From an uncultured Lachnospiraceae bacterium (GTDB lineage: Bacteria > Bacillota > Clostridia > Lachnospirales > Lachnospiraceae), in the NCBI GenBank assembly GCA_947631075.1, contig CANRJU010000001.1:1-49335 (forward strand): a stretch of DNA of 49,335 nucleotides, read 5' to 3'. The notes under the pieces were generated by a model. That model did no database searches. It worked only from the letters and a program-made list of their open reading frames with translations, and had not been told where the DNA came from. Both the position numbers and the translations under genes were made by a program. Below, in pieces: positions 6,512 to 38,355 of this stretch; position 1 is the first letter of the stretch; each line of letters opens with the position of its first letter.

Positions 6512-7069
6512 TCACTCAAACTCCACGCGCCCCGTCTCGATATCATAAACAGCACCGAGAATGCGCACATCGTCCTCTTTTTGAATATCCAAGCTGTCCT
6601 TAATCAGCGAAACACTCCGCTCCACATTTTTCCAGCACGCCTTCAGGGCGTCCGTTTCGTCTCCAATAGCAAGGCTGATCTCGTCGGTCACAAATTTAAT
6701 ATACCCCTCCGGATCGTGATGAAGCGCCGCGTCGATAGCGCCGCAGTGCGTATGCCCCAGCACGACGACCAGCCGGCAGCCCAGATGAGACGCCGCATAC
6801 TCGACGCTCCCCAGCTGATGATTGTCAATCACGTTTCCCGCCACGCGGATTACAAACAGCTCCCCGATTCCCGCCATAAAAATATCCTCCGGAATCACTC
6901 TCGAATCGGAGCAGGTAACAATGACCGCATAGGGATGCTGCCCCTCCTTCGCCGTCTTTTCCCGCAGGGCAGGCGAAATGTCACTGTCGTTGCGGGCGAC
7001 GGCAAGATACGCCTCATTCCCTGTTTTCAATCTCTCTAACGCAGTCTTTGCAGACATAATCTGATCCAT
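6512..7069 (-). CDS. Beta-class carbonic anhydrase
   Basis: CSDSR, RVAGN and HTHCGA zinc-binding motifs. Confidence 0.95.
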   Translation of the reverse strand: MDQIMSAKTALERLKTGNEAYLAVARNDSDISPALREKTAKEGQHPYAVIVTCSDSRVIPEDIFMAGIGELFVIRVAGNVIDNHQLGSVEYAASHLGCRLVVVLGHTHCGAIDAALHHDPEGYIKFVTDEISLAIGDETDALKACWKNVERSVSLIKDSLDIQKEDDVRILGAVYDIETGRVEFE

Positions 7070-11321: not shown

Positions 11322-11349
11322 AAATATTCTCTCCTCATTATATGTTTAA

Positions 11350-11475
11350 TAAATAACATTTTTCTTTAATTTCAGGTCAGTTTTAATTGGCTTCTTTTAC
11401 TGATAGAATACATTTTTTCCGGCATATTGTCAATACGGTTTCCCGTTCCTTCTCGGGGGGCTATTCTTCTAAAAT
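11350..11475 (-). promoter_or_regulatory. csm6 promoter with a lone degenerate CRISPR repeat (copy of 32556-32678)
   Basis: TTGACA-17 bp-TATTCT on the minus strand; repeat relic gtttcccgttccttctcggggggctattcttctaaaat at 11438-11475; near-identical to the cas1 upstream region. Confidence 0.85.
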
Positions 11476-13352: not shown

Positions 13353-13432
13353 TGTTTTCCTCCATACTGTTGTTTTTGATAATAACTTCATATTAAAATC
13401 TCCTAGTCAGAACATGCCTATCTACTCAACTG

Positions 13433-16400: not shown

Positions 16401-18292
16401 GCTTCCGGACGCTTACTCTTCAGAACCTTCTCGCTCTCCGGCAATTCCTCAAAGAGTGAAGTTCCAAGTACCGCTGTAGCAGCATCGTAGCCAAGATAAA
16501 ATGTCTTGAAATTTCCAAAGTTACAGCTTGGGCATTTCCCATCGCCACGGACTCCGTTTTTCTTTGCCTTGCGAACTCTGACGTAATGATTGAGGCCACA
16601 GGTACACGGCAAATCTGATTTCAGACTCTCATGTATGAGAGCACCGCACTTAGAGCACAGCAAGTAATCATTTTTTCCGATTTCCCAGTTAGCATCTTCC
16701 TCATCTTCCTCACCATCCAGATCGGTATCATGGCTGTCACGAAGTAAATAGTATTCCATATTCAAATCATAAGAATCACATGCAAATTCCAGCTTACCAT
16801 CTATCTCACGACCTGCTACAGCAATACGTCCACAATCGTCACATATAGCACATTCAAATACTTTCCATCCTTCTCCGTTAATCATCGTATTACGATTGCG
16901 GTTCAGTATCAGTTTCTTGTGCTGTCCAAGTGTAATATATGCGCCCTCGAGTGCTTTAACGAACATGTGATAACGTGCCTTAATGAGAGCAGACTTGTTC
17001 TTAGCAGCCTGTGCCGCCACACTAATAATATTTACAACATCCTGTTCCGTAACATCGTGCGTTTCTCTTAAAGCTCCGGTAATTTCCGGAATCGTCATCG
17101 GTCGGCAAGTAATGTTGCGCAATTGACGATATACAGATGCACATACACAGAGATCATACAGAAACTCCGCATCCGACTGTTCGTCTGAAATATCCATACC
17201 ATAATCTTCTGCAATTACATTCAGCGGCTTCTTCGGATCAACAATATCTGCAAACACGGAAAGTGGAATATTCTTCGAAGGTTTATCATACGAAGGCACC
17301 ACACTCTGTGAACGGATAATATCTTCTTCCCGGAATCTTGCATTACAAAGTGTGTCAGCGAATTTAACGATATCCTCGTCAGCTTCTTTTCCGCCAAGTG
17401 TTGCGCTAGTAAGAATGTGCAGCACATTTTCAGGATTGCTGATTCTGGCCTTGAGACGCTTTAAAAGCAGGGAGGTTTCCATTCCTGTTGTGCCGCGATA
17501 AATATGTGCTTCATCAAGGACAAGAAATCGCAGCTTTGCCCCTGAAAAGACAAGGTCATCTTTCGGTCGGAGCATCATATACTCTAGCATGGCATAATTT
17601 GTCACAAGAATATGCGGCGGCGTTTTCTGCATCTGATCCCGAGAAATGATTTCATTTTTCAGTGGCTTGAGCGGATAACCATTAGCCGTCTTATATATCT
17701 TTCCATATTCTGCAATGCCATCCTGCTCATTTTGTTTGGTACTGCTGTTATAGACGCCAAAGGTAATATCCGGGTAACTTTTGAGTAAATTACGGAGTCG
17801 TTTCATCTGATCGTTCGCCAATGCATTCATGGGATAAATCAGAATTGCCCGAACGCCGGAGGTTAATGTACCTTTTTCTGCTTCTCTGAGCAAATGATTA
17901 ATAATAGGGATTATGAAACATTCCGTCTTACCTGAACCTGTACCCGTCGTAACAATCAGATTTTTGCCTTGGTTTGTTTTTCTGAGTGCATTTTCCTGGT
18001 GAAGATAAAGCCCTCTATTAATCTGAATTTCTTTTTCACCGTCAGGTATATTGCCCTCCAGTATTTTGAATAGAGGGGAAGCCTCGCCTTCCTCAATCAT
18101 TTGCGCCAGGCTCTTGCCTGTTTTATAAGAATCGCTCACATCAAGGTATGGTCCTTTTGAGACCGCACCATCGGCCTGCAATGCAGAAACAAACTGCGCC
18201 GCATATTCCCTGTCAGAAATATGAAACAACGTAGAGATGTATCCAATAAATTCATTTTTAATTTTTTCGGCTGCCAAAATTGGACTGAACAT
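13433..18292 (-). CDS. Large DEAD/DEAH SF2 helicase with DUF1998 zinc domain (Druantia DruE-like)
   Basis: TGTGSGKT, YPMNALANDQ, LDEAH, TSAT, FSDSR, TTFEMGVDVG and QRAGRAGR motifs, several CxxC pairs, and C-terminal YDAVAGGAG...CNC..SCYSC; 1619 aa. Confidence 0.85.
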   Translation of the reverse strand: MFSPILAAEKIKNEFIGYISTLFHISDREYAAQFVSALQADGAVSKGPYLDVSDSYKTGKSLAQMIEEGEASPLFKILEGNIPDGEKEIQINRGLYLHQENALRKTNQGKNLIVTTGTGSGKTECFIIPIINHLLREAEKGTLTSGVRAILIYPMNALANDQMKRLRNLLKSYPDITFGVYNSSTKQNEQDGIAEYGKIYKTANGYPLKPLKNEIISRDQMQKTPPHILVTNYAMLEYMMLRPKDDLVFSGAKLRFLVLDEAHIYRGTTGMETSLLLKRLKARISNPENVLHILTSATLGGKEADEDIVKFADTLCNARFREEDIIRSQSVVPSYDKPSKNIPLSVFADIVDPKKPLNVIAEDYGMDISDEQSDAEFLYDLCVCASVYRQLRNITCRPMTIPEITGALRETHDVTEQDVVNIISVAAQAAKNKSALIKARYHMFVKALEGAYITLGQHKKLILNRNRNTMINGEGWKVFECAICDDCGRIAVAGREIDGKLEFACDSYDLNMEYYLLRDSHDTDLDGEEDEEDANWEIGKNDYLLCSKCGALIHESLKSDLPCTCGLNHYVRVRKAKKNGVRGDGKCPSCNFGNFKTFYLGYDAATAVLGTSLFEELPESEKVLKSKRPEAGSKRGLFSSAKQSAQVDIIKRKRQFLSFSDSRGEAAFFASYMTASYSEFLRRRGIWHVVDKNRDNMAAHPWEIQHFVDELTAYFDSCRTFAEPGDKGTENLTAISRKNAWIAVLNEMANARRSTSLVSMGIIKFNYKGNSEEVMAGVAEAYGQNIQDMKALFDLLAMDIVYHGAIEGDCELTDDDREYIFYTAKAKRVKRCKDLDKDKKKSYLAGWSSAIRKNGNLLKNGRLKRVMKVLNLDEASANELLQIYWDEVLRGEEPLSTAGNDEFYFSAERFTIGAGTEDVPIYVCDVCGKTSMINCKGMCTTLKCGGHLKQITHASLLEDNHYAKLYQSSLMQPLHIKEHTAQLGREEQQKYQEMFVNKEINALSCSTTFEMGVDVGDLETVYLRNMPPSPANYVQRAGRAGRGKNAAAFSLTYSKLSSHDFTYYKNPENMITGKIGVPLFTVRNEKVILRHIFAVALSDFFAKQVDVYNANNADVFLNGDGWERLCAYLRSKPEHLKEILKASIPENMHSIMGITDYSWIDKLIGDDGVLKIAVDEFRQTVQYYIDEYNGLLKKGLTQEAAAVEKKLWSYRRGKDDNRGRNELIEFLVRNNVLPKYGFPVDTVELYQNANSSTDRKLQMVRDLQLAISEYAPDAQVVADGKLYTSRYIRKLPQTTGQDWETAYIAQCENPSCQTWNHRFMEPDSSGEECVSCHEIIPRIRWKQAIEPRKGFVADAKPKDVPMRKPDKVYRSDDFYIGDAQRQIMQKYAFVMNDGNRFQMETSINDSLMVVCKDDFYVCPHCGYAESTTENMEDASFNSHQHTLKRIHTTPWGKKCEVKLVKNKLCHVFRTDVVRLVFATPQADSQDVMLSVMYALLEALSSVLDIERNDIKGCLHKIVYDNRLIYSIVLYDAVAGGAGHVRRMVTEDGGKFRQVVDKAIAITKGCNCSPSCYSCLRNYYNQKIHDKLNRKYAYDFLENYAGELEPITNEEFEKGKVTVF

Positions 18293-18294
18293 AC

Positions 18295-21210
18295 TTATAT
18301 CCTTTCCGTCCGATACGAATACAGATCAGCGTTTGCATAGGTATGCTTGTTTTTCTTTGTGTACTCGCGATCTGTCAGCGCATAGACTGTATTTTCTAAA
18401 TATTTATCATAGTAATGGTAATAATAGAGGCCGTCACCATCTGAATCGGTTATATAAAGAACTGTGTCGCCAACATAAACAATTCGTACTGGATTAACCA
18501 TCAATTTCGTCACACCTTTCTTATTTGTGTGACTATCGAATGAGAACTCGTATCTCTCACCATTATATCCTGTGGTATACATCACGCCACTATAAACCGG
18601 ACAATATCCCTCAGAAGTGTCCTCCATTCCCTGAAATTCTATCTTATCAATATAACAGGTTCTGATTGATATATGACCAGCGCCTTCATTAAACTCATCT
18701 GTAATTGAATCAATTACAATTCTGCGATTTCTAAAACGAAGCAGGTTCTGATCGCCAACAATACAATCTCCTTCTGCTATAACTTCTTTCACCGTTTTAA
18801 ACAAACCGCCAGAAATAATGCTAATCTCGTAATGATAATTTCCGATTGGCATATCTTCCGGGATTTCGACAAACTCTGTGTTTTTGTCTAATTTAAATTC
18901 AATCGGAGCATCAGCCTCTCCATATAATGATAAGGCAAATGTCCGGTCGGATTTACCAATAAAAGTACCACCCTGATTCCAGAAGAGCTTATGGCCTTCT
19001 GTCCAGAACTCCGGCCTGCCAAGAAATCGCTCCTTATAACAAATCCTAGCTAACTGATATTCATTGCTCTGCCTGCTACCGGCAACTCTCATTTCAACAT
19101 CCGCAAGAGAAAAGTTTTCAGCATTACAGAAAGATTGAAGCACATTACCAATCGTAACCACCCCCTGGCCATCATACATAACATCTTTTCCGCCAACAAA
19201 AAACTTTACATCTATCTTCGGCGGCGCTGAAATTCTTAACAGACTTGTCTGCGGAATATCTCCTATATACCATGCCTGAGCAGAACCATCCAGCCACGTC
19301 CCACTGGTTTCTTGAACATCAATCCTCGGAATAGCGGCATGCAGTTCGCCGTTTCTATATGGAATCCGAACTTCTCTTGCATTTGCATCAAATGACACGC
19401 TTTCCGAAAAATCATCAATGTTAATCCGATACTCAGCATCCTGATAATCAGAAGCAGAATAATAAAATTCTCTGTTGAAGCTGCACGATGCTTGCCTAAC
19501 AAGAACAAAGCTCCTATCAAACATCAAATGTTCATTTGCCAGATTAATAACCTGCAGCCTGCAGGTGTCCTTATCTCCCAACAGAGGAAATGTAAAGACC
19601 AACCCATTATCCGAAGAAAAAAGCGACGAGAAATCTATCCGTTGTTCATCTCGAAGAATTACATACTTTTGAAGATAATCCAAGTTGCCCAGAATAATCC
19701 TGCAAACACTATTATAATATGCGAAATAACATTCCTGTCCGTCTACTTCTACACACGGAAGCATCGAAGACTCGGAAGGCGCAATCACACGGATGTCTAT
19801 TCCATTTTCACTGTCGAAGGCAACTAATCTATCATCAACCGATATTACATAACCATCTTTCAACTCAAGAAAAAATGCCTGTAATCCAAAATTCTTAAAT
19901 CCGTCAATTTTCGTAATTTCAGCATTCTCCGCTTTCAGTACAGATGCTCTTGGTATGACAAGCGTATAATTATCTTTTTTTATCTGGCTGGTATTATATT
20001 CATTGCTGCCATAAAAAATCCAAGTTCTGCGATTAAGTGTATCCTTGGAATTATAAATTTCTTCGTCGTTACAGGTTATTATAACCTGGATGCCTATTGC
20101 CTCAGTGCCGGTAGGAACCGCTGGAAGAGATAATGATACGCCATTCAAAGTTTTACCCAGCTCATTTCCGTACCAGCTCATATTTTGCTGACAGGCAATG
20201 GAACCATTATAATAAACAGCTACAACAGCCCTGTTGATTTTTTCGCTCTTTAATCGAATATCCGGCAAAACAAGCCGAATATCTGTTTCATTTTTCAAAA
20301 TGTATTTTGCGTGAATACGAGAATAATCAATTGCAACGTCCCTCATCCCACTCAGGCTTTGACGCTCCGCACACTTTGTATTGGCAATCGCCGTAATCTT
20401 CTCCTTAAACCATTCTTCACAAAGCAGTTCTTCATAAGTCTTAGCCGATTTATCTCCCGAATTAACCATAGCATCTATTTTTAATATGAGTTTTTCAAAC
20501 AGCCCTCTGGTAAACATTGGTCTAAATTGAACAAGTTTCCGAATACCTTCCTGGAAAGAATATGCTTTCGAGCTAATCGTCAGTTCTATATCTTCGCTGC
20601 CATCTCCGGCTAATTTTTGCTGAAGAGACCGAATCATAACTTCAAGAAGAGGATCTCCAGGGATTATCTTCCAATTCAAATTGTTTTTATAAAAATCGAA
20701 CAAAAAATCAAAAAGTGCCATCCACGATTTTCGAGTAGCAAGAGCATGAATGACTGCTGTGGACTTAAATGCGCGACCGTTTGATCCCTCTATAAAAAGA
20801 CGGTGATTCTTCTTCATTGCACTTTCTAACGAAGACTGCAAAAGATGTACTACAGAACCGCTTGCGTCACGGTATCCGAATTGAAGAGCAATATAATTCC
20901 AGAAGTTACCGTTCTCTTCATTTTTCCAGTTCTTGGCATTATTGACCAAAGCCAAAGTTATCTGCATCTTCGCACGCAGAGACAACTCTATCTCCGGATA
21001 TCGTAAGACTGTATCAATGTATTTTCTGGAATATGCATTTAGCTTATCAAGTTCTTTCTGCTTTATGATTTTGCTGCCAATTAACGGATACTGTGCAAAT
21101 ACCTTCTCCTCAAATTTCCCTTTACTCTGACGCACCTCCATGTCTTTTTCCGAGACATCTACCACCATATCCGATCTCTCAGTAGTGCGTGCAAACTTTC
21201 TTTTATCCAT
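18295..21210 (-). CDS. Large hypothetical protein, helicase partner (DruH-like position)
   Basis: ~970 aa ORF ending 2 bp before the helicase start; helical-looking N-terminus (FWNYIALQFG, FDFLFDFY) and beta-rich remainder; start uncertain (track gives 21282). Confidence 0.7.
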   Translation of the reverse strand: MDKRKFARTTERSDMVVDVSEKDMEVRQSKGKFEEKVFAQYPLIGSKIIKQKELDKLNAYSRKYIDTVLRYPEIELSLRAKMQITLALVNNAKNWKNEENGNFWNYIALQFGYRDASGSVVHLLQSSLESAMKKNHRLFIEGSNGRAFKSTAVIHALATRKSWMALFDFLFDFYKNNLNWKIIPGDPLLEVMIRSLQQKLAGDGSEDIELTISSKAYSFQEGIRKLVQFRPMFTRGLFEKLILKIDAMVNSGDKSAKTYEELLCEEWFKEKITAIANTKCAERQSLSGMRDVAIDYSRIHAKYILKNETDIRLVLPDIRLKSEKINRAVVAVYYNGSIACQQNMSWYGNELGKTLNGVSLSLPAVPTGTEAIGIQVIITCNDEEIYNSKDTLNRRTWIFYGSNEYNTSQIKKDNYTLVIPRASVLKAENAEITKIDGFKNFGLQAFFLELKDGYVISVDDRLVAFDSENGIDIRVIAPSESSMLPCVEVDGQECYFAYYNSVCRIILGNLDYLQKYVILRDEQRIDFSSLFSSDNGLVFTFPLLGDKDTCRLQVINLANEHLMFDRSFVLVRQASCSFNREFYYSASDYQDAEYRINIDDFSESVSFDANAREVRIPYRNGELHAAIPRIDVQETSGTWLDGSAQAWYIGDIPQTSLLRISAPPKIDVKFFVGGKDVMYDGQGVVTIGNVLQSFCNAENFSLADVEMRVAGSRQSNEYQLARICYKERFLGRPEFWTEGHKLFWNQGGTFIGKSDRTFALSLYGEADAPIEFKLDKNTEFVEIPEDMPIGNYHYEISIISGGLFKTVKEVIAEGDCIVGDQNLLRFRNRRIVIDSITDEFNEGAGHISIRTCYIDKIEFQGMEDTSEGYCPVYSGVMYTTGYNGERYEFSFDSHTNKKGVTKLMVNPVRIVYVGDTVLYITDSDGDGLYYYHYYDKYLENTVYALTDREYTKKNKHTYANADLYSYRTERI

Positions 21211-21302
21211 TTTTTCATCACCAGATTTCTTTATAGTATATGCGAGGACGGGGCTTTTCAGGAACAACGCCCTCTTTATCACAATGTTTATAAGAGTTTA
21301 TT

Positions 21303-22835: not shown

Positions 22836-23777
22836 TCATAATCCCGTCCCTTTGTCAATCACTTCTATCATATTTCCCTGCCCCCTCAACCAAATATCAA
22901 CGCCATCTCCATACACTTCGGCCTTAATCGTCCAGCCGGTCTCATCATGTTCTATGATCTCCGCCGTCGGAAAACGATCCAGCACAGCCTCAATGCTCAG
23001 GCCTTTGTACTTAAACTTGATTGTCCTCAATTCACCGCCAAACATGAATTGAATCCTCTTTCGGAATTCGCCCTCCTGAAAGCGGTCGGCATATGGTACA
23101 CGAAAATGCTCGTCCAGAATTTCATACTCTGCAATGCGGTCTATCCTATAAATCGTAGGGAATGGCCGTTTGGGAACATCAGGCATTTCTTCGCTGACAG
23201 AGATATAAGCGCAAAGATAAAAGTAGTATTCCGAAAACATGATTCCTACTGGCTGAATCAGCCGTTTCACCTTGTCCGGCTCTTTTAGCTTCTGATAGCG
23301 AATACGCATCAACCGATGTTCATACACCGCACTGCCAATATTCCACATGTCATCCACAAATTTTCTACCGTGATGCGGCTCCAGATAATGAAACTTCTCA
23401 TTACTGATCAAATTCTGCACCTGCTTATAATTTGGGTAAGGCACGCAGCACTGCAAAAGTTTGTCAATGATCGGATACATTTCCTCTTTAACAAGCGACC
23501 GACTTTCAAGAAGAATCTTGCACACCGTAAGAATTTCGCTGTTTGTTAGAGTATTCCTTCTGCTCTGAACCAGAACGTAACCCTTCTGAGAGCGATCATA
23601 AATCAGTTCCCGATTAGATTCCGGATCATTTGCAAAGTAAGCCCGGATATCGTCGATATCCCGCTGAATAGTTCTTTCATTGACTCCGTATCGGGCAGCC
23701 TCGTCTGCTTTAACCAGAATTTCTCCGTCCATAATGCGGTTATACAGACTGATTATTCTTGCAACTTTTTTATCCAT
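22836..23777 (-). CDS. WYL-domain transcriptional regulator (HTH-WYL-WCX)
   Basis: HTH YGVNERTIQRDIDDIR; WYL PVGIMFSEYYFYL...YRIDRI; C-terminal WLRGQG. Confidence 0.92.
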   Translation of the reverse strand: MDKKVARIISLYNRIMDGEILVKADEAARYGVNERTIQRDIDDIRAYFANDPESNRELIYDRSQKGYVLVQSRRNTLTNSEILTVCKILLESRSLVKEEMYPIIDKLLQCCVPYPNYKQVQNLISNEKFHYLEPHHGRKFVDDMWNIGSAVYEHRLMRIRYQKLKEPDKVKRLIQPVGIMFSEYYFYLCAYISVSEEMPDVPKRPFPTIYRIDRIAEYEILDEHFRVPYADRFQEGEFRKRIQFMFGGELRTIKFKYKGLSIEAVLDRFPTAEIIEHDETGWTIKAEVYGDGVDIWLRGQGNMIEVIDKGTGL

Positions 23778-23840
23778 TCATCACCATCCTCTCTCGCTAT
23801 AACTGCCTCCATACTATACATATTTTAGCAAATAGGCACT

Positions 23841-23853
23841 GACAGAATCTGTC
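23841..23853. promoter_or_regulatory. Palindromic putative WYL operator
   Basis: GACAGA-A-TCTGTC perfect inverted repeat 13 bp upstream of a TAAAAT box in front of the WYL gene. Confidence 0.5.
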
Positions 23854-23870
23854 TATCTTGAAATTTTCTT

Positions 23871-25268
23871 TTACCAATTATCCAAATCTGACAACAGATC
23901 GTTGACAGAATTTTTTTCGCTGCCGCCATCCATCTCCTTTAATTTTAGGTAAACCCGTGCCGTAGTAACCGCATCTGCCAATGCTCTGTGAGCCTGCGGG
24001 TTTTCTATATCAAGTTTCTCCGACAGTTCTTCCAGGGAGACAGTCCTGGCATCTATTATGTCTAGCTGCTCTTTAAACTGAGTCGCGTAACGCTTTACAT
24101 CAAAATATTTATTCTGAATTTTAATACGTGCGTACCGGCCGGCTCTGACCATAAATTTGCTGTCAAAAGCCATACAGTTGAAGCCAAGCAAAATATCGTC
24201 TCCGGCAAATTTCATGAAATCCTCAAAGACCTCCCACATTTCCCGGGCATCTTTGACGTCATCCGCTGTTATACCGGTAAGCTGCTGAATCTCATCGGAG
24301 ATCTTCTGTTTATACGGCTTTACAAGTTCCTGAAAGATAAATTCAGCCTTTTCTATAACCTGCCCGCCACATACGCGAATAGCGCCAATCTCGATGATAG
24401 AATCTTTTGAGGAACTGAGCCCAGTCGTTTCCAAATCAAAGGCTACAAAGCTGTCAAAATCCGCCTCTCGCGTTTCTACTGGATTAGGGTATTGATCCAG
24501 TGGGATTGGCGTCGGCGCTTTCTTTCTCGGTTTGGGCATGGCAGCCTCAATGCCAATACTCTCCAGAAAATCAACATATTTCTGCCTTACCTCATCACGA
24601 TTTTCTCTCGGATTTGGCATATATTCCGGTTTACCTGCTTCTGCCTTTTCACGCTGTTTTTTGTTCCTCTCAGCGCAGCTCTGCATGGTCTGAACCGCGG
24701 ATGTGTCATTTTCAAACCGTCGCAGCGCATCGGCAATCACCTCTCCCGCAGCGTCATATCTGCGGGTATTTATGTAAAATTCCGCCAAGTTATAACAGGC
24801 CTGCCAGGGAATATCCTCAGATTCACTAAGCCGGGAAGCAATCTTGTCTGCTGCCGAATAATCATAGTCCATATAGAAGGCTCCAAGAGCAATGCCGTGA
24901 AGCCTGTTCTTCTCGTCCTCCGTCAGACCGTCATTATCTTTTATCGTTTCGTAAATCTCATAAAACCACTGTCTGCTGTCTTTTGGCACATTGGAAGTAG
25001 ATGCGCTTGAAAAAGCAGCAGCAATCGCCAGTACTCTTTGATATTCTTTTCTTGGTGTCGGCAGATAATCACTGACTGCAAATACCAGATTTCTCAAATT
25101 AACAGAACTGTTGAACTCGCTGCATAGGTTTTCCCAGATTGGATTTTCTCCGGAACCCGGTTTATAAGCAATCAATTCCTGACACAACGCTTCTAGATCT
25201 GCTCCGTTTCTGCAACTGTCACACAGGCAGAAATCATTTTCTTTCCCGCACTTTATACATATAGCCAT
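23871..25268 (-). CDS. Zn-finger / TPR-like / DEDDh 3'-5' exonuclease fusion
   Basis: N-terminal CIKC..CDSC; central helical TPR-like region; FDLETTG, FNCMAFD and HRALADA Exo motifs; start after AAGGAGG. Confidence 0.85.
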   Translation of the reverse strand: MAICIKCGKENDFCLCDSCRNGADLEALCQELIAYKPGSGENPIWENLCSEFNSSVNLRNLVFAVSDYLPTPRKEYQRVLAIAAAFSSASTSNVPKDSRQWFYEIYETIKDNDGLTEDEKNRLHGIALGAFYMDYDYSAADKIASRLSESEDIPWQACYNLAEFYINTRRYDAAGEVIADALRRFENDTSAVQTMQSCAERNKKQREKAEAGKPEYMPNPRENRDEVRQKYVDFLESIGIEAAMPKPRKKAPTPIPLDQYPNPVETREADFDSFVAFDLETTGLSSSKDSIIEIGAIRVCGGQVIEKAEFIFQELVKPYKQKISDEIQQLTGITADDVKDAREMWEVFEDFMKFAGDDILLGFNCMAFDSKFMVRAGRYARIKIQNKYFDVKRYATQFKEQLDIIDARTVSLEELSEKLDIENPQAHRALADAVTTARVYLKLKEMDGGSEKNSVNDLLSDLDNW

Positions 25269-25282
25269 AGTGTTGTTCCTCC

Positions 25283-28117
25283 TTACGCTTTTTTGCATAC
25301 ATACCGCATATCGCAGAATGTGCATGCATACGAGTTTGTAACGCTTCCGTCAAAATTTTTATTTTCAATATTTTTTATGGTCTCTGATATTTCCGCCACC
25401 GTATGATCGATGGATGATCTGGTACGCTCAAAGGTAATCAGAGGATTGTCATTCTGGCAGCTGGTATAGTACAGATGCATCCGTTTTACCCTTTTACCAT
25501 ACCGCTTTTCAACCAGATACGCATAAATCTCTAACTGCTTCCTATAATGCTCTACCCGCTCCGGATAATTACAGACGTCAGGCTTAGGACCTGTCTTGTA
25601 GTCCACAATCTCCACCGTATTTCCCTGACCTTCAATCAGATCAACAACACCCTGCAGAATATAGTCTGGCAGCACCAGATTTATTTCTTCCTCGGCCCGC
25701 CATACCCTGCCAAGCTCATCTTTCCTGCGATGGTAATATCGAATGACCTGCTGCAGCGCATTTCCCCTCTGCTCGTCTGTCAGGAAATATCCCGTTTGCT
25801 CCTGCATGCTTTGGTAGTTCAGCACAAACCACTCTTTAATCGCATCTTCATTAACGCGATCCTGTCTGCCCGCAATAATACACTTGTTCATGTCCTCCAA
25901 TGTTGCATGGACCAGGGAGCCGACGGATGTATGGAACATCCTGTTCTGAGCAAAGCCATATTCCTTGTAGTACTTATACTGCGTCGGACAGCCCTCATAG
26001 ACAGAGATATGGGATGTAAAGGAATATACATGCTTATAATTCACCGCCTTCACATCCGCGAAGGGAACCTTACTCGTAAAGATTCCTGCATCCGGCATCT
26101 GCACCAGATATTCTCCAAAGTACTTGCTGTCCGTTTTCTTCGTTGCAAGAACCAGCAGGTTCTGAGCTCTGGAAAAAGCTGTATAATACAATCTCCAGAA
26201 GTCGAAGAACTTGATATCTGCCATCGGCTCAAATGGCTGCCGTCGAAAAAACCTGCTCTCGGCTGAATACAGCAGGGGATCGCTGGTCCGCCTTGGCACG
26301 CTCCCCAAGGAACCAACCACAACGGCTGGAAATTCCAATCCCTTGGACTGATGAATGGTCATAAAGGAAACGCAGCCGCTTGGAGCGTATTCTGACTCAT
26401 CCTCATATTCTCCAATGCCATCCTCAATCATATATTTGAAATAAATATTGAAAAGTTCCTCCGGCATTGCCAGCTTATTATCCGCAGAAACATTGTGCAT
26501 ATCATGCAGGAAGGAAAAACGGCTGAACATCCGAGACAGCTCCGAAAGATTTCTGGCTGCTCTGCTCTTTATCACATTGTCCCGCGTACCGACCTGCAAG
26601 TATCCCCTGAACGGCTCATAGGCAATCATGTGATAGAAAATGTCAAGCAGGCAGAAATCCGAGGCTCCTTTAAGTTCCTGAATCTCATTTTTAACCTTAT
26701 CAATGTACTGCATCAAAGATACGTCAGTTTTTGCAAACGGCAATGCCGCCTTAAGGCAGCCGATGTAATATTGGCGCACTCCTTTACTAATTCCATGAAG
26801 GAACATGTTCCTCTTCAAATCCATCATGTAGCTTGTAAAACACATGATGATACATCCGAGAAGCTGCTTTACCTCTGCTCGTTCAAAGAACATATCCGAT
26901 CTCGGCGAATACACCGGGACGCCATTTTTCTCAAACCATGCGCCAATCTCCATAGCTTCCTTGCTCTTAACCGAGCGAAACAGAAAGGCAACCTGGTTAT
27001 AATTACTAATATTGCCTCTGGATTTCAAATCCATAACCAGCTTTAAAAGTTCGGCCTTCTCATCATCTATCGAATCACCGCCGCAAGAATACACGGATGC
27101 TTTAGAAAACAGCGGCTTCTTTCCGGCTATGATTTTTTTTGCATAACGGTACTTATCCCAATTAAAGAGATTGATGCCGTCCATATTCTCCATCCACCGG
27201 TTATAAAAGTCGATAATGCCAGGCTCGGACCGATAGTTGATATCCAGATGAATAACTTTACATGTATCAAACTTATCCGGAAATTCCAATATATTTCGGA
27301 TTGTAGCCCCGCGGAAGCGGTACATGCCCTGATCGTCATCGCCAACCACACAGATATTCTTTCGATCACCGGCAAGCAGCAGAACAATCTGCTCCTGAAT
27401 ATAGTTTGTATCCTGATACTCATCTACCATAATGTATCGGATGTTATCCTGGATTTTTGACAATATCTCCGGTTGCTTCATGAGCATGTCATATGTTTTT
27501 GTCTGTATGGACGAGAAATCCATTGCATTATTACGCGCAAGGAGCTCCTGATACCTGCGCACAAGCTTTGCAAGAAACCTCATGTCTTCATCGCGGTCTA
27601 CTTCCATAGCGTCAACGTCTACCAGTTCCTCCATCAGATGATTCACATAACGACAGATTTCCAGAGACTGTTTCCAGGGATTCCTTGCGGAAATATGTCT
27701 TTTAAAATTGCCAAAGCAGTTAAAACTGTCTATATTGCGGCAAACAAGATATGTCTGCTCAAAGGCATCCAGCATGCGGCATCTGCCGGTTTCTTCCGCG
27801 TATCCGGAACTTTCCTTAAGAATACGGAGGCACACAGAATGGAAGGTTCCAATATACATCTCATTTATGTTCAGATTCAGATCGACAAACTCATTAGAGA
27901 TTCTGGTGAGTAATTCTCTACCGGCTTTTTCCGTAAAGGTCACTACCATAATCTCGCCGGGCTTCACGCCTTTTTCCCTAACGAGGTAGGATATCCGCTT
28001 TACCAGAGTGAATGTCTTTCCCGTTCCCGGGCCGGCAATCATCAACACCGGACCTTCTGTCGCCAGAATCGCTTCCTTCTGCGCATCATTTGCAAGCCCA
28101 AAATCAAATGAACTCAT
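25283..28117 (-). CDS. UvrD-like SF1 helicase with C-terminal PD-(D/E)XK nuclease
   Basis: AGPGTGKT, VDEYQD, GDDDQ, INYRS, TIHQSKGLEF and YTAFSRA motifs; nuclease GVVDLI..VDYKTG..QLEIY; Cys pattern CP...CTFC....C suggests an Fe-S cluster. Confidence 0.9.
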   Translation of the reverse strand: MSSFDFGLANDAQKEAILATEGPVLMIAGPGTGKTFTLVKRISYLVREKGVKPGEIMVVTFTEKAGRELLTRISNEFVDLNLNINEMYIGTFHSVCLRILKESSGYAEETGRCRMLDAFEQTYLVCRNIDSFNCFGNFKRHISARNPWKQSLEICRYVNHLMEELVDVDAMEVDRDEDMRFLAKLVRRYQELLARNNAMDFSSIQTKTYDMLMKQPEILSKIQDNIRYIMVDEYQDTNYIQEQIVLLLAGDRKNICVVGDDDQGMYRFRGATIRNILEFPDKFDTCKVIHLDINYRSEPGIIDFYNRWMENMDGINLFNWDKYRYAKKIIAGKKPLFSKASVYSCGGDSIDDEKAELLKLVMDLKSRGNISNYNQVAFLFRSVKSKEAMEIGAWFEKNGVPVYSPRSDMFFERAEVKQLLGCIIMCFTSYMMDLKRNMFLHGISKGVRQYYIGCLKAALPFAKTDVSLMQYIDKVKNEIQELKGASDFCLLDIFYHMIAYEPFRGYLQVGTRDNVIKSRAARNLSELSRMFSRFSFLHDMHNVSADNKLAMPEELFNIYFKYMIEDGIGEYEDESEYAPSGCVSFMTIHQSKGLEFPAVVVGSLGSVPRRTSDPLLYSAESRFFRRQPFEPMADIKFFDFWRLYYTAFSRAQNLLVLATKKTDSKYFGEYLVQMPDAGIFTSKVPFADVKAVNYKHVYSFTSHISVYEGCPTQYKYYKEYGFAQNRMFHTSVGSLVHATLEDMNKCIIAGRQDRVNEDAIKEWFVLNYQSMQEQTGYFLTDEQRGNALQQVIRYYHRRKDELGRVWRAEEEINLVLPDYILQGVVDLIEGQGNTVEIVDYKTGPKPDVCNYPERVEHYRKQLEIYAYLVEKRYGKRVKRMHLYYTSCQNDNPLITFERTRSSIDHTVAEISETIKNIENKNFDGSVTNSYACTFCDMRYVCKKA

Positions 28118-28913
28118 AACGGACTCCTATGGCCTTCATAAAGTCTTTAATCTGATTCATCTGGTACTGGGTTGCATAGATTTTCATGGCAACGCCACCA
28201 TCCACATTCGCTGGCACCTGCTGATCCACGACGGGGGAGGGATTCTGTGTTCCAACGGCATCAGCCGCTTTTTCTACTGTTGTAAGTCCGGCTGCAGATG
28301 CGGCTTTCGTAAGCTCAACATTCTTTTCCTTTACTGCATCCATAGATAATGTCTCCACATAGACCTGCAGAAGACTTTCCTTAAAAGGTGATTTCATAGC
28401 TTTGATTTTTCTGATATCTTTATTGGCTTCGTCAATGGCAATCTGTATGCCTTCTTCGTACTTGGCGCGTCCGGTAGATGCATTTACCCACTTCTTGTCA
28501 AAGAGCTTTGGATAAAGCGGCTTAGCCATATCGCCAAGAACTCCTGCCTTGCGGTCATAATATTTTCTGACTTCTCGCTCCTTAGCTTCTTTCTGGCGAT
28601 TTTCATAATCTTTTACGCTATCGTCGATTGCCTTACGCTGATTTTCCACCATATCCGCCAATTCCTTGATTTGGGGCTCTATTTTCTCATAGGGAGCAAG
28701 GCAACGTGCCTTGTAAGCCTTTCTAGCGTCTTCTATAACCTTCTTTGCCTTATTCAGAGTAGTACGATCCTTCTTTGCGTCTTTGATCGAAGCATCCGTA
28801 TATGCGATAGACGCATAGGCTTTCAATTCTCTCTTTAGCGCCGTGCGAAGTCGAGAAAAATCCCACTTGCTTATATCTGTATTTTCCAGTTGAATAATCT
28901 GCAAATCGCTCAT
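28104..28913 (-). CDS. DUF1351-family coiled-coil protein
   Basis: YTDASIKDAKKDRTTLNKAKKVIEDARKAYK is typical of phage-type DUF1351; overlaps the helicase start by 14 bp. Confidence 0.75.
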   Translation of the reverse strand: MSDLQIIQLENTDISKWDFSRLRTALKRELKAYASIAYTDASIKDAKKDRTTLNKAKKVIEDARKAYKARCLAPYEKIEPQIKELADMVENQRKAIDDSVKDYENRQKEAKEREVRKYYDRKAGVLGDMAKPLYPKLFDKKWVNASTGRAKYEEGIQIAIDEANKDIRKIKAMKSPFKESLLQVYVETLSMDAVKEKNVELTKAASAAGLTTVEKAADAVGTQNPSPVVDQQVPANVDGGVAMKIYATQYQMNQIKDFMKAIGVRYEFI

Positions 28914-29006
28914 AACAATCTCCCTTACTGTATTATTTTTCAAATTTGTCTTTCCGCATCCAAATCAAATTTTTCCACCAAAACTATATACACCTATATA
29001 AATATA

Positions 29007-29035
29007 ATTTTATCATAATTTGCCGAATCCTGCAA
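29007..29035 (-). promoter_or_regulatory. SigA-type promoter of the DUF1351 operon
   Basis: TTGCAG-17 bp-TAAAAT with TGn. Confidence 0.55.
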
Positions 29036-29124
29036 GAAGATTGTAATTTTATGTTTTCCTGATTTTCTGTGTTACTATTGGAATTAAAAATAATGTTTAG
29101 TAAGAAATTAAATTACAACAATCA

Positions 29125-29153
29125 TTGAAAAATCATAAACCGAGTGGTATAAT
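29125..29153 (+). promoter_or_regulatory. SigA-type promoter of ligA
   Basis: TTGAAA-17 bp-TATAAT with TGn. Confidence 0.7.
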
Positions 29154-29190
29154 AGATACCAGAAATATATACAAGTGAAGGAGTTTCAAT

Positions 29191-31152
29191 ATGGAGGAAA
29201 AAATTACCCGCATGAAAGAACTGGTGACGATTCTGAATCAGGCCGCCAGAGTGTATTATCAGGGACAGGACGAGATAATGTCCAACTATGAATACGACAA
29301 ATTATACGACGAGCTGACGGAGCTTGAAAAGGACACAGGAGTTACGATGTCAACCAGTCCCACGCAGAACGTGGGATACGAGACAATCAGCGAGCTGCCG
29401 AAGGAGCCCCACATCGCCCCCATGCTCTCGCTGGACAAGACTAAAGAAGTGGAGACGCTGTCCGCCTGGATCGGCGAGCAGGAGGGACTGCTCTCCTACA
29501 AGCTGGATGGTCTCAGCGTGATACTCACTTATGAAAACGGGGTGTTAGTTAAGGCGCTCACTCGGGGCAACGGGGAGATCGGAGAGGTAATCACCAATAA
29601 TGCGAAAACCTTCGTCAATGTCCCGGGGCGTATCCGATTTGAGGGCAGCCTTGTAATCCGTGGAGAGGCGCTGATCCGATACTCGGATTTCGAGCAGCTC
29701 AACAGCCAGACGGCAGAAATTCAGGAAAAATATAAAAATCCGAGAAATCTGTGCAGCGGCAGCGTGCGCCAACTGAACAATGAAATCACTGCTAAGCGAC
29801 GGGTTCATTTTTATGTTTACAACGTCATACAGACCGACAGGCCGGAGACTTTTGACAAGAAAGAAAAAGAGCTGAACTGGCTCTCCTCGCTGGGCTTTGA
29901 CGTGGTCCCCTTTAAAAAGGTGACGCGGGAGACGCTTGGCCGGACGGTGGAGGATTTTTCCCGGGAGACAGCGGAGAGTGACCTTCCCAGCGACGGGCTG
30001 GTGCTGACTTTCGACGACATAGCATACAGCGCCGGACTGGGCCGCACCGCCAAATTTCCCAAAGACTCCATTGCCTTTAAGTGGCAGGATGAACTTGCGG
30101 ACACCACACTGCGGGAAATTGAGTGGAGCGCTTCCCGCACCGGCCTGATCAATCCGGTGGCCATTTTCGATCCCGTGGAATTGGAGGGAACCACGGTGAG
30201 CAGAGCCAGCGTGCACAACGTCAGTATTCTCCGGGAGCTGAAGCTGGGCATCGGGGACACGATTTCCGTTTACAAGGCCAACATGATCATTCCCCAGATC
30301 TACGAAAATAAGACAGGGAAAAACAATTGCGTCATCCCTGAAAAATGTCCGGTCTGCGGCGGCGAGACTGCTCTGGTGCAGGAGAACGGCTCCGTGGTGC
30401 TGACCTGTCCCAACCCGGACTGCTACGCAAAAAAAATTAAAAATTTCACTCATTTTGTAAAACGGAACACCATGAATATAGATGGGCTGTCCGAGGCGAC
30501 GCTGGAGAAATTTGTGAACTTGAACCTCCTGCACGATGTGACGGACATCTACCGTCTGTCCGAGCATCGGGACGAGCTGATTGGTCTGGAGGGTTTTGGC
30601 GAAAAATCTTATGAAAACCTCATGAACGCCATCGAAACTTCCAAAAAGGCACCTCTGGCCAACGTGCTGTACAGCCTGGGAATCAAGGGAATCGGCCTCA
30701 ATACCGCCCGGCTCATCGTCCGCGAGTACCCTTGGAAACTAACGGATTTTCAAAATCTGACGGCGGAACAGCTAGTGGCCATAGACGGAATCGGACAAGT
30801 GCTGGCGGATTCCTTCGTGGATTTTTTTGCCCAGGAAAAAAACAGGGACATGGTACGCGTTCTCTCCGGATTTCTGAATATCCAGTACCCCGAAAAGAGG
30901 AATTCCGATGAGGAGCCGCTGACCGGAAAGACCTTTGTTATCACGGGGAGCTTGAGTCAATTTGCCAATCGGAACGAGTGCAAAGCGAAAATTGAAGAAC
31001 AAGGAGGAAAGGTGGTAGACAGCGTCAGCTCCCGGACAGACTACCTAATCAACAACAATGTCTCTTCTTCTTCCTCCAAAAACAAAAAGGCAAAGGAACT
31101 GGGCATCCCCATCATCACGGAGGAGCAGCTTTTGCAGATGCTTCCTCTTTGA
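29191..31152 (+). CDS. ligA: NAD-dependent DNA ligase
   Basis: MLSLDK, KLDG adenylation motif, TRGNGEIGE, CPVC..C..C zinc finger, HhH repeats and BRCT domain. Confidence 0.97.
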   Translation: MEEKITRMKELVTILNQAARVYYQGQDEIMSNYEYDKLYDELTELEKDTGVTMSTSPTQNVGYETISELPKEPHIAPMLSLDKTKEVETLSAWIGEQEGLLSYKLDGLSVILTYENGVLVKALTRGNGEIGEVITNNAKTFVNVPGRIRFEGSLVIRGEALIRYSDFEQLNSQTAEIQEKYKNPRNLCSGSVRQLNNEITAKRRVHFYVYNVIQTDRPETFDKKEKELNWLSSLGFDVVPFKKVTRETLGRTVEDFSRETAESDLPSDGLVLTFDDIAYSAGLGRTAKFPKDSIAFKWQDELADTTLREIEWSASRTGLINPVAIFDPVELEGTTVSRASVHNVSILRELKLGIGDTISVYKANMIIPQIYENKTGKNNCVIPEKCPVCGGETALVQENGSVVLTCPNPDCYAKKIKNFTHFVKRNTMNIDGLSEATLEKFVNLNLLHDVTDIYRLSEHRDELIGLEGFGEKSYENLMNAIETSKKAPLANVLYSLGIKGIGLNTARLIVREYPWKLTDFQNLTAEQLVAIDGIGQVLADSFVDFFAQEKNRDMVRVLSGFLNIQYPEKRNSDEEPLTGKTFVITGSLSQFANRNECKAKIEEQGGKVVDSVSSRTDYLINNNVSSSSSKNKKAKELGIPIITEEQLLQMLPL

Positions 31153-32530: not shown

Positions 32531-32555
32531 CCCAGCCTCCTCATTGCAAGCTTGG

Positions 32556-32641
32556 TAAATAACATTTTCCTTTAGTTTCAGGTCAGTTTTAGACCTTTCT
32601 TTTACTGATAGAATACATTTTTTCCAGCATATTGTCAATAC
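32556..32641 (-). promoter_or_regulatory. cas1-cas2 promoter abutting the terminal repeat
   Basis: TTGACA-17 bp-TATTCT on the minus strand; duplicated upstream of csm6. Confidence 0.7.
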
Positions 32642-35027
32642 GATTTCCCGTCCCCTCTCGGGGGCTAATCTCTAAATCAAAAATGAAAAAAATAAAAATC
32701 ACCCACAACGCCAATCGCTTCCGTCCCCTCTCGGGGTTTCTATTTTCTAATCACCGATAGCAAAGAGACATATACAAAAGCGGAAATGTTTCCGTCCCCT
32801 CTCGGGGTTTCTATTCTTCTGATGGCGGACATAGTGCGTGCGCTAGAAACTGTTATGGAAAAGGTTTCCGTCCCCTCTCGGGGTTTCTGTTTTCTAATCC
32901 TGAAAAGATGGGGCGTAACAGATGAGGCGCAGGTTTCCGTCTCCTATCGGGGTTTCTATTCTTCTAATAACAAGCGTGGTATTTCCATTTTGAGCCGTAT
33001 CGTTTCCGTCCCCTCTCGGGGTTTCTATTTTCTAATCCAAGGATGGCATTTTGAAGATTATCATGGATTCAATGTTTCCGTCCCCTCTCGGGGTTTCTAT
33101 TTTCTAATCCAGATTTCCAACTTTCAATAGTGCTATGAAACATGTTTCCGTCCCCTCTCGGGGTTTCTATTTTCTAATCGAAAAGGGGGAATTTTTATGG
33201 TATTAATATTAAAGTTTCCGTCCCCTCTCGGGGTTTCTATTTTCTAATCGTGTATGACAATTTAGGACAACCGATTGCAGATGAAAGTTTCCGTCCCCTC
33301 TCGGGGTTTCTATTTTCTAATCACTTATATCTGGTCTTTCGAAAATGGCGGCTACTGTTTGTTTCCGTCCCCTCTCGGGGTTTCTATTTTCTAATCAAAG
33401 AGAAATTCCATTTTATTTTTTCACATATCAGTTTCCGTCCCCTCTCGGGGTTTCTATTTTCTAATCACGATATCGTTATCCCGTATAAATAAGCGTATAT
33501 ATGTTTCCGTCCCCTCTCGGGGTTTCTATTTTCTAATCAATTGAAAAAAAAAATATGAACCTAAGATATAAAGAAAAGTTTCCGTCCCCTCTCGGGGTTT
33601 CTATTTTCTAATCAAGAAAAGGGGGATTATTTATGTTATTACATGTATGTTTCCGTCCCCTCTCGGGGTTTCTATTTTCTAATCTGTAATAAATACTTAT
33701 TACATAAGTAAGCCGGATACCGGTTTCCGTCCCCTCTCGGGGTTTCTATTTTCTAATCGTGGTAAAGTTAGAAGATACAGCGTTCTTCAGATTATGGTTT
33801 CCGTCCCCTCTCGGGGTTTCTATTTTCTAATCTGAAAGAAACTGTTATCATTAAAGAGGATGTTGTTTCCGTCCCCTCTCGGGGTTTCTATTTTCTAATC
33901 GCGGTATTCGGTAACACTATAAAGGATGTTACTGATGTAGTTTCCGTCCCCTCTCGGGGTTTCTATTTTCTAATCTTTGATAAAAGTTATTTATTTGGGC
34001 AACCAAATAGGTTTCCGTCCCCTCTCGGGGTTTCTATTTTCTAATCTTTAGCCCCTCTTATTGGGAACTGGAAGAACATCGGGTTTCCGTCCCCTCTCGG
34101 GGTTTCTATTTTCTAATCGAGATGTTTATTATGGAAAGAGAATTTTCAAGTTTCCGTCCCCTCTCGGGGTTTCTATTTTCTAATCTATTATTCATCCAGG
34201 AAATGGATAACATGGACAGTTTCCGTCCCCTCTCGGGGTTTCTATTTTCTAATCCTATGACGATACCAATATTACGCTGGAAGATAAGTTTCCGTCCCCT
34301 CTCGGGGTTTCTATTTTCTAATCTCAAGTGCTTCGATTTCTACATAGCACGTTTTGGTTTCCGTCCCCTCTCGGGGTTTCTATTTTCTAATCAGGACTAC
34401 AACGTCTATTGCTTAATCAGTACAGACGGGTTTCCGTCCCCTCTCGGGGTTTCTATTTTCTAATCTTGATTCATAGCGTCTGACGGTTTTAAAAAATTGT
34501 TTCCGTCCCCTCTCGGGGTTTCTATTTTCTAATCAAAATGGGTTATTCTGTTTATATCATGATGGAATATCGTTTCCGTCCCCTCTCGGGGTTTCTATTT
34601 TCTAATCGAAAGTTCATAGTTGAACCTATACAGGATACAAAAGTTTCCGTCCCCTCTCGGGGTTTCTATTTTCTAATCATTAGATTTACTTGAACACATG
34701 GAGAAAAGGGGACGTGTTTCCGTCCCCTCTCGGGGTTTCTATTTTCTAATCCAATGGTACACAATAACACTGAAAACTAAATGTTTCCGTCCCCTCTCGG
34801 GGTTTCTATTTTCTAATCTAAGGGATGATTTACCATCGATATTAGGAGATAAGTTTCCGTCCCCTCTCGGGGTTTCTATTTTCTAATCCTATATGCCGAT
34901 TATTGACCACTTGTCATTATCGTTTCCGTCCCCTCTCGGGGTTTCTATTTTCTAATCCACAATGCATAAAGATATAAATAGCATAGAATCCGTTTCCGTC
35001 CCCTCTCGGGGTTTCTATTTTCTAATC
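32642..35027 (-). CRISPR. Type III-A CRISPR array: 34 repeats (one strongly degenerate terminal) and 33 spacers of ~31-39 nt
   Basis: 36-bp repeat GTTTCCGTCCCCTCTCGGGGTTTCTATTTTCTAATC. Its reverse complement ends in ACGGAAAC (type III 8-nt tag) with a CCCC-GAGA-GGGG hairpin. Variant repeats cluster at the low-coordinate end, so transcription is on the minus strand. Confidence 0.99.
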
Positions 35028-37968: not shown

Positions 37969-38355
37969 TCAATCTTTTCCTCCATAATATTTGTGATAGG
38001 CGACCAGTGCTTCCATATAATTGCTGAATAACAGGTATCTGCTCTTGCTGTTGCCTATTTCATCCAGACATTTCAATATCTCCGCCTTCTCCACAAAGTC
38101 CTTCATATGTCTGGGATCCCGTCCTGCCTCATATACAAAACGCACCCTCAGATATTGGATTTTCCCAAGAATCTCCTCGCTCAATGTCTCATCCAGCGAC
38201 AGGCACACTTCATTGTAGATATCCGCCGTCATCGCCAGCAGATTCCGAATCTGGGATGTTGTAATCATATCTATCCAGCCCTTCTTATTGGGCACTGCCA
38301 GACTCTTAATCACCTTTTCCGCCTTGTCTACATAATTCTCCTGACTCAAAATCAT
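37969..38355 (-). CDS. csm2: Type III-A small subunit Csm2
   Basis: TTSQIRNLL, YEAGR, YMEALVAYHKY. Confidence 0.95.
   Translation of the reverse strand: MILSQENYVDKAEKVIKSLAVPNKKGWIDMITTSQIRNLLAMTADIYNEVCLSLDETLSEEILGKIQYLRVRFVYEAGRDPRHMKDFVEKAEILKCLDEIGNSKSRYLLFSNYMEALVAYHKYYGGKD

Follow-up and report, generated by a model that had tools for sequence, protein, structure and literature searches.

A conserved module of DUF1351, UvrD-Cas4, Zn-TPR-DEDDh and WYL genes in a Lachnospiraceae genomic island

In this work, we focus on a group of genes carried by an uncultured Lachnospiraceae bacterium on contig CANRJU010000001.1 (GenBank assembly GCA_947631075.1), of which we analysed a stretch of 49,335 nucleotides, termed here the window. 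A preliminary description had singled out three tightly coupled genes at positions 23871 to 28913, encoding a DUF1351 protein, a UvrD helicase fused to a PD-(D/E)XK nuclease and a TPR-bearing DEDDh exonuclease with a putative zinc site (Zn-TPR-DEDDh), and had proposed them as an undescribed system. We find that this trio is the front of a conserved four-gene module, DUF1351 - UvrD-Cas4 - Zn-TPR-DEDDh - WYL, whose fourth gene, a regulator with a helix-turn-helix (HTH) and a WYL domain, and its palindromic promoter were absent from that description. The module is real and conserved and apparently undescribed, and it is a variant within the known UvrD-Cas4 family.

The conserved four-gene module

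The open reading frames (ORFs) and Pfam domains of the trio match the earlier annotation, including the 14-bp overlap of the DUF1351 and helicase-nuclease ORFs (28104-28117) and the 14-bp gap between the helicase-nuclease and the exonuclease (25269-25282). The window has 85 listed ORFs, many of them overlapping shadow frames, and 31 were scanned for families. The features that concern us are the following:

28104-28913, minus strand: DUF1351 (PF07083) gene, 269 aa (Pfam PF07083, E 4e-23)
25283-28117, minus strand: UvrD + PD-(D/E)XK helicase-nuclease gene, 944 aa (PF00580, E 2.5e-70; PF12705, E 1.9e-24)
23871-25268, minus strand: Zn-TPR-DEDDh exonuclease gene, 465 aa counted from an ATG preceded by a ribosome-binding site (PF00929, RNase_T, E 3e-29)
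22836-23777, minus strand: HTH-WYL transcription factor gene, 313 aa, fourth gene of the module (domain scans)
23822-23858, minus strand: GACA-N5-TGTC palindrome and extended -10 box, predicted WYL site and promoter of the WYL gene (intergenic alignment and matrix)
29007-29035, minus strand: candidate extended -10 promoter of the trio, with a weak -35 box and no WYL-type palindrome (sequence)

The trio co-occurs widely elsewhere. Scans with a profile of the Zn-TPR N-terminal region returned 38 metagenome loci and one viral locus (related loci are numbered here with an L), 14 of these 39 being too short to judge, and among the 25 exonuclease-anchored loci that have at least 3.7 kb upstream, 21 show the full trio. 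Over all scans (51 loci, of which 12 were fetched by helicase or DUF1351 and are therefore biased toward linkage), it is found in 29 of the 34 judgeable loci and in 23 of 28 clusters at 90% identity. The WYL gene follows in 26 of the 29 loci with room for it, and all three close WYL orthologues found in 400 genomes of the bacterial family have the exonuclease gene upstream. All four genes are under purifying selection, with a median ratio of non-synonymous to synonymous substitution rates (dN/dS) of 0.03-0.12 for the 7-8 of 136 pairs that are unsaturated; the WYL orthologues have a mean identity of 83% and a median dN/dS of 0.034 (8 usable pairs).

The module is rare. The trio-type DUF1351 occurs in 2 of the 400 family genomes, the Zn-TPR profile finds nothing in the 400 genomes of a phylum sample, and the Zn-TPR domain has 105 matches in 1.84 billion representatives at E<=1e-10. 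Where carriers are named, most are Lachnospiraceae of the rabbit gut and the rumen; one is a Ruminococcus and one belongs to the Erysipelotrichaceae. The module is mobile and is often carried on mobile DNA of gut and rumen bacteria, nine of 31 trio loci holding integrase, serine recombinase, relaxase or lysis genes. Contigs from four DNA sequencing runs, whose source study is possibly shared with the window, cover the region in part, one of them spanning 28807-29318; no RNA run is listed among the sequencing runs for the region.

No PADLOC model matches the trio as a set, as had been anticipated; its only matches are partial ones to GajB, RTasHel, Cas4 and DEDDh domains, with none for DUF1351. 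No description of the gene set was found in the literature covered, which took in few subscription papers; the supplementary loci of PMC5704561 could list it.

The helicase-nuclease belongs with UvrD-Cas4

The helicase-nuclease carries PF00580 at residues 10-283, PF13361 at 289-660 and PF12705 at 702-942. The superfamily 1 (SF1) helicase motifs are all kept, K34, D232/E233, Q263, R296 and R650 being invariant in 33 helicase-nuclease sequences, and so are the nuclease residues E809, D826, D839 and K841 and the cysteines C710, C932, C935 and C941. The placement of these cysteines is that of iron-sulphur (Fe-S) nucleases, and from what is known of AddB and Cas4 we take them to be cluster ligands.

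The preliminary description had likened this protein to AdnAB and AddA. This assignment has to be given up: the score against the AddA model (141.6 bits) is far below the cut-off (707.65 bits), and the host genome has its own addA elsewhere, together with PcrA-like helicases. Since the host keeps these genes, the module is an addition to them and not a replacement. The protein falls instead in the UvrD-Cas4 family, in which an SF1 UvrD-like helicase is joined to a pfam12705 Cas4-like nuclease and for which a role ancillary to defence was predicted (PMC5704561). In the part of that study considered here, the conserved contexts are type III restriction-modification (R-M) and Dcm/Vsr, with WYL-HTH regulators in several loci.

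A scan of GTDB with the helicase-nuclease, which returned 26 loci, separates two groups. In all 11 relatives at 64-86% identity the next gene downstream is that of the exonuclease, which is so in none of the 15 at 42-47%. The latter are followed in 13 of 15 cases by a methyltransferase gene in type III R-M style, with a Res-like gene also in 11, and the contigs of the remaining two end within 600 nt. The 42-47% identity to these 15 loci spans residues 3-943, and so covers the protein in its full length. In a tree of limited size, with one host helicase as the root, the trio-type UvrD proteins form one clade (30/30, support 0.972) with the R-M-associated clade as its sister. Mod/Res and Dcm/Vsr genes were found neither in the window nor among the scanned neighbour representatives of the trio loci. 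The 21 PLSDB plasmid records with UvrD-Cas4 are all distant (<60% identity).

The exonuclease and DUF1351

Judging from its residues, the third gene encodes a DnaQ/PolC-type DEDDh 3'-5' exonuclease with an intact D-E-D-H-D set: D278, E280 and D369 are kept in 108 of 108 homologues, and H427 and D432 in 107. The domain adopts a DnaQ fold (TM 0.85 to the DnaQ domain 8h2f). As to the Zn-TPR label given earlier, C4, C7, C16 and C19 do not vary among 76 homologues, and this four-cysteine N-terminus likely binds a metal, presumably zinc, as deduced from the cysteines. The TPR Pfam match falls short of the curated threshold (23.2 vs 25 bits), but the middle part forms helical repeats in the predicted structure, and its best look-alike in the Atlas is a TPR cluster (0.93). 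The exonuclease also takes part in other arrangements. In L091 (10001-15703), a 1900-aa protein combines Zn-TPR-DEDDh with a coiled coil and BspA-type leucine-rich repeats (LRRs), its gene being preceded by drmAB-like genes and followed by a vWA/MoxR pair. In L094 (10001-17376), the exonuclease gene directly precedes an AddB-AddA-like pair, which takes the place of the UvrD-Cas4 gene.

The DUF1351 protein is modelled as a long helical hairpin or coiled coil, a flexible linker and a small C-terminal helix (mean pLDDT 85). No specific fold match points to the decoy, sensor or end-binding role supposed earlier for it: Foldseek gave no match at E<=0.001, a sequence search of the PDB gave none either, and VIA-align returned only generic helical bundles (best Z 9.7). 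DUF1351 occurs beside phage annealases and has been grouped by gene position with Gam-like genes, according to the sections of PMC8093625 that treat it. A comparison with Gam gave matches to generic bundles only, with no Gam family among the 25 families shown for 97 members. In the tree, the trio-type DUF1351 forms one clade (29/29, support 0.987) apart from phage DUF1351 proteins, to which it is 23-39% identical; it is also rare on viral contigs (one of the best 80 loci).

The nearest sampled relative of the trio DUF1351 is a 444-aa fusion of DUF1351 to a DEDDh domain (support 0.874). With this fusion as the query, 613 proteins are found at E<=1e-20, and both Pfam domains are present in all 120 of those listed. 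The fusion makes up a family of its own, with at least 120 clusters, and its exonuclease has a median identity of 39% to that of the trio, two PolC domains reaching only 30-34%. It was found in one of 88 genomes of one genus, in none of the 401 genomes of an order sample and in no viral locus. In L015 (928-2259) it lies upstream of an sbcD-like gene, and in L184 (8427-9815) in an island that draws on the same pool of HEPN, HIRAN and alpha-CTD genes; neither of these two contexts carries the operator described below or a trio-type helicase. The Zn-TPR domain is in turn fused to SF1B-type helicases in 3 of 20 scanned matches (3 clusters). Taken together, the two kinds of fusion speak for a common pathway of DUF1351, the exonuclease and a helicase, binding being implied by neither. 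A complex prediction for DUF1351, the exonuclease and the nuclease domain (residues 686-944, the helicase core being omitted for size) had a score of 0.01 and gave no answer.

The WYL regulator and its predicted operator

The WYL protein has no sequence match to any solved WYL structure. Alignment of the intergenic DNA gives a GACA-N5-TGTC palindrome followed by an extended -10 box ahead of the WYL gene. A matrix was made from 21 unique WYL-upstream sites, that of the window included, the seed being found in 24 of 30 regions; the site at the window's WYL promoter is its top match in the whole host genome (48 bits). Trained on WYL-upstream sites only, the matrix also detects a site in 10 of 29 DUF1351-upstream regions, at 25-42 bits and 64-74 nt before the start, with no site in 40 control regions or 2900 shuffles; with longer upstream stretches the count is 11 of 30. 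When whole loci were scanned, 622 kb of exonuclease-bearing loci gave 45 sites, which with few exceptions stand directly before WYL, before a gene inserted ahead of WYL or before DUF1351; 343 kb and 977 kb of control loci gave none. The palindrome and the -10 box are shared by 20 of 25 distant relatives of the WYL protein (about 50% identity), whose short loci show no trio neighbours, against 2 of 10000 shuffles. The spacing between the two elements is 17 nt before trio-type WYL genes (15/15), mostly 17 before DUF1351 (10/12) and mostly 16 before the distant relatives (16/20). The WYL family at about 50% identity (L185-L214) is found in 32 further genomes of the 400, with the same predicted operator.

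The palindrome resembles the CGWCA-N5-TGWCG site bound by the WYL activator DdaA (PMC12392091) and the PafBC consensus tGTCgg(N10)tA(N3)T (PMC8635444), as the consulted parts of these papers give them. Because of the co-occurrence, the controls and this likeness, GACA-N5-TGTC is very likely the operator of this WYL family, and the trio is very likely a member of the WYL regulon in at least six independent clusters. PafBC is activated by single-stranded DNA (ssDNA) (PMC11804915, in part), and by analogy ssDNA would also be the inducer here. In Vibrio cholerae, restricted infection derepresses a WYL-controlled defence (PMC13622015, in part).

Upstream of the window's own trio, the single promoter claimed at 29007-29035 is only a candidate. 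TTGCAG-17-TAAAAT with a TG before the -10 box is present there, but the -35 box matches at 3 of 6 positions, the promoter scan did not list the site, and the number of promoter-like sites in the region (28) is close to that in shuffled sequence (22.0 +/- 4.9). A conserved ORF of 59-78 aa precedes the module in 10 loci (L040, L062, L063, L065, L067, L068, L069, L071, L077 and L098); we take this small protein to resemble HTH or excisionase-like proteins. In L058, an operator site (position 6527, 29 bits) lies upstream of sbcD-sbcC-LRR-trio, which suggests a longer regulated operon.

In the host genome, which is 88% complete, only two sites reach at least 14 bits, both in the island and none before chromosomal repair genes. 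Besides the WYL promoter there is a weak operator-like match (16 bits) at 13387-13423 of the window, which overlaps the start of an AT-rich 464-aa ORF in a geometry unfit for a promoter. Since these two are all that the matrix finds, we discard the idea of a global damage regulon in the host. A role in repair is the main rival to the explanation favoured below, and we give it limited weight. The module would then be a mobile, SOS-independent repair system, in which WYL switches on a helicase and an exonuclease that resect breaks or remove adducts for the host or the element, as MrfAB or an extra AddAB or SbcCD would. The promoter layout recalls the damage-response activators PafBC and DdaA, and MrfAB pairs a helicase with a DEDDh exonuclease bearing TPR in repair (PMC11194089, in part). 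The exonuclease or the fusion adjoins sbcD (L015, L082, L058), addBA (L094) or SRAP-polC (L088), and there is a second ligA copy, one copy adjoining the trio in the window. This repair role is opposed by the confinement of the sites just given, the patchy, element-borne distribution, the addA and PcrA-like helicases that the host retains, and the R-M association of the sister clade of UvrD.

Genomic neighbourhood

The trio sits within a type III-A CRISPR locus, in the order cas6-cas10-csm2-5, array, cas1-cas2, a divergent ligA and the trio, which is followed by WYL, a Sel1-repeat gene, a 995-aa family-less gene, a DruE-like helicase gene, csm6 and a Septu-like pair. The defence neighbourhood reported earlier is confirmed by the type III-A CRISPR-Cas genes, the Septu-like ptuAB and the DruE-like helicase, and no phage structural family appears in the 31 scanned ORFs (between 748 and 43578). 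Elsewhere, the flanking genes vary between loci and the cargo behind WYL is highly variable. HEPN, SIR2/AbiH, DruH/E-like, HipA, Uma2 or similar domains are held by 12 of the 20 trio loci of at least 12 kb, and Sel1, HIRAN, BRCT or alpha-CTD-repeat genes by 12 of 31.

This variability, together with the presence of the module on integrative elements and one prophage-like contig, would also fit a function in recombination or maintenance of the mobile island, a domesticated phage recombination protein and nucleases aiding cassette exchange or protecting element ends in transfer. DUF1351 normally adjoins YqaJ, RecT or ERF genes (PMC8093625, in the same sections), but no annealase occurs among the scanned neighbour representatives of the trio loci, and 22 of 31 trio loci have no mobility gene in the fetched DNA. 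We regard this explanation as unlikely.

The module had also been suggested to supply prespacers to the nearby Cas1-Cas2. Prespacer processing is known from the Cas4-like and DEDDh domains of other systems, and as an accessory of the type III-A Cas1-Cas2 the module would combine a Cas4-like nuclease with DEDDh trimming. A Cas1:Cas2-DEDDh structure is indeed among the fold matches of the exonuclease, and in L088 the exonuclease gene stands alone two genes after csm6. But cas genes occur in none of the 31 related trio loci, ligA separates the trio from cas2 here, and the Cas4 model scores 51.7 against a cut-off of 65 bits; moreover, pfam12705-type proteins are described as not associated with CRISPR in the text drawn on from PMC5704561. 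The suggestion is not supported, and we regard it as very improbable.

Several features of the island itself deserve mention. A 145-nt direct repeat (85.5% identical) at 11331-11473 and 32537-32676, before both cas1 and csm6, brackets a 21-kb island and holds a degenerate CRISPR repeat and a promoter-like site. As cas1, cas2 and csm6 are adjacent in L088, the island may be inserted into a cas operon. Contig C26 ends with a second copy of the ligA gene (29191-31152), which shares 94% identity with it over residues 1-188; one of the two may be an island-borne duplicate. At 13433-21282, the 995-aa family-less gene and the DruE-like helicase gene (PADLOC E 2e-171) make a Druantia type III-like pair, which also follows the module in 5 of 31 related loci and at times has alpha-CTD repeats at the N-terminus; the 995-aa gene would be 'DruH' from its size and position, no model having matched it. 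Finally, cas10 is split over two ORFs, with the HD domain at 40101-40640 and the remainder at 38352-40046, through a frameshift, a split gene or an assembly error.

Proposed mechanism

The reading that we favour, and to which we give about an even chance, is that the module is an ssDNA-inducible DNA-end-processing unit ancillary to defence, which would degrade or resect the ends of foreign or broken DNA. It builds on the gene linkage, the intact active sites, the purifying selection, the palindrome and -10 box found before WYL and in about a third of loci before DUF1351, and the DUF1351-DEDDh fusions. We predict that UvrD-Cas4 opens and cleaves DNA, starting at ends or forks. Trimming of 3' ends would fall to the TPR-DEDDh enzyme, for which DUF1351 may serve as a coiled-coil scaffold. 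Switched on by ssDNA, this helicase-nuclease-exonuclease unit would be a helper to the surrounding defence cargo. We infer the enzyme polarities and the Fe-S cluster by analogy.

A number of observations weigh against this end-processing unit. As to its composition, the exonuclease occurs without the trio helicase in L088, L089, L091, L093 and L094, DUF1351 is absent from L037, and no trio-type helicase was found in three draft genomes that carry the fusion or the exonuclease with WYL. As to its regulation, the window's own DUF1351-upstream region has no palindrome (-13.8 bits), like 19 of the 30 regions tested; the 11 operator-positive DUF1351 loci collapse to six clusters at 90% identity; and in the host genome the matrix ties no site to the trio, finding only the WYL promoter and the weak match. 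As to its setting, 41 of 58 neighbour representatives have no PADLOC match at 1e-5, most matches being to partial domains, and the neighbours include the repair-type genes SbcCD, AddAB, HIRAN, BRCT, SRAP and ligA. Because PADLOC recognises so little of the cargo, its defence character is only suggestive, and so is the bias of the module toward defence islands.

A bolder version, which we find doubtful, is a self-amplifying immune-priming circuit, in which DUF1351, as a domesticated phage recombination protein, would bring the helicase-nuclease and the exonuclease to invading ends, the ssDNA products would switch on WYL, and WYL would raise both the trio and the variable defence cargo behind it. 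If this were true, a member of the DUF1351 family would for the first time have an assigned role on the host side. The DUF1351-DEDDh fusion gives a first handle on DUF1351, and the predicted operator belongs to a WYL family that 35 of the 400 genomes of the bacterial family carry. With this operator it becomes directly testable whether, in gut Clostridia, the processing of DNA ends and the sensing of ssDNA are linked to the expression of islands.

Comparison with known systems

Among the published systems, ARMADA was rejected, its helicases and methyltransferase not matching the module as far as PMC12458937 was covered, and so were type II Gabija and DarHTG, which differ from it in the portion of PMC13069673 examined. 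Gabija proper has in common an SF1 helicase acting with nucleases on DNA ends, but no GajA-type OLD nuclease adjoins the module, and the GajB models cover only the N-terminal half of the helicase in the helicase-nuclease. AddAB and AdnAB have two subunits, against a single helicase-nuclease chain that is far below the AddA cut-off. The phage DUF1351 proteins found beside annealases (PMC8093625) share the Pfam family, whereas the trio DUF1351 makes a clade of its own, beside which no annealase was seen.

MrfAB of Bacillus subtilis (PMC11194089) is closer in composition, since it also joins a helicase and a TPR-bearing DEDDh exonuclease. However, MrfA belongs to the YprA/DUF1998 helicases and has no Cas4-like nuclease fused to it, the TPR of MrfB is C-terminal and that of the module N-terminal, and the material taken from that study describes no DUF1351 or WYL partner.

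The UvrD-Cas4 family (Hudaiberdiev et al. 2017, PMC5704561, seen in part) has the same fusion of an SF1 helicase to pfam12705, and relatives at 42-47% identity stand before Mod/Res. The clade of the module differs in having neither R-M nor Dcm/Vsr and in being tied to DUF1351, Zn-TPR-DEDDh and one WYL clade with a definable operator. The family thereby gains a third, compact context of four genes, free of R-M genes.

With DdaA, PafBC, CapW and BrxR, the module shares an HTH-WYL protein, and its xCA-N5-TGx palindrome is like that of DdaA. Its TGTC half-site stands 16-17 nt before TANNNT, as in PafBC. From its HTH and WYL domains and its predicted operator, the WYL protein is predicted to fit the ssDNA-sensing WYL factors, with the difference that the site of the module is confined to its island and not spread over chromosomal repair genes.

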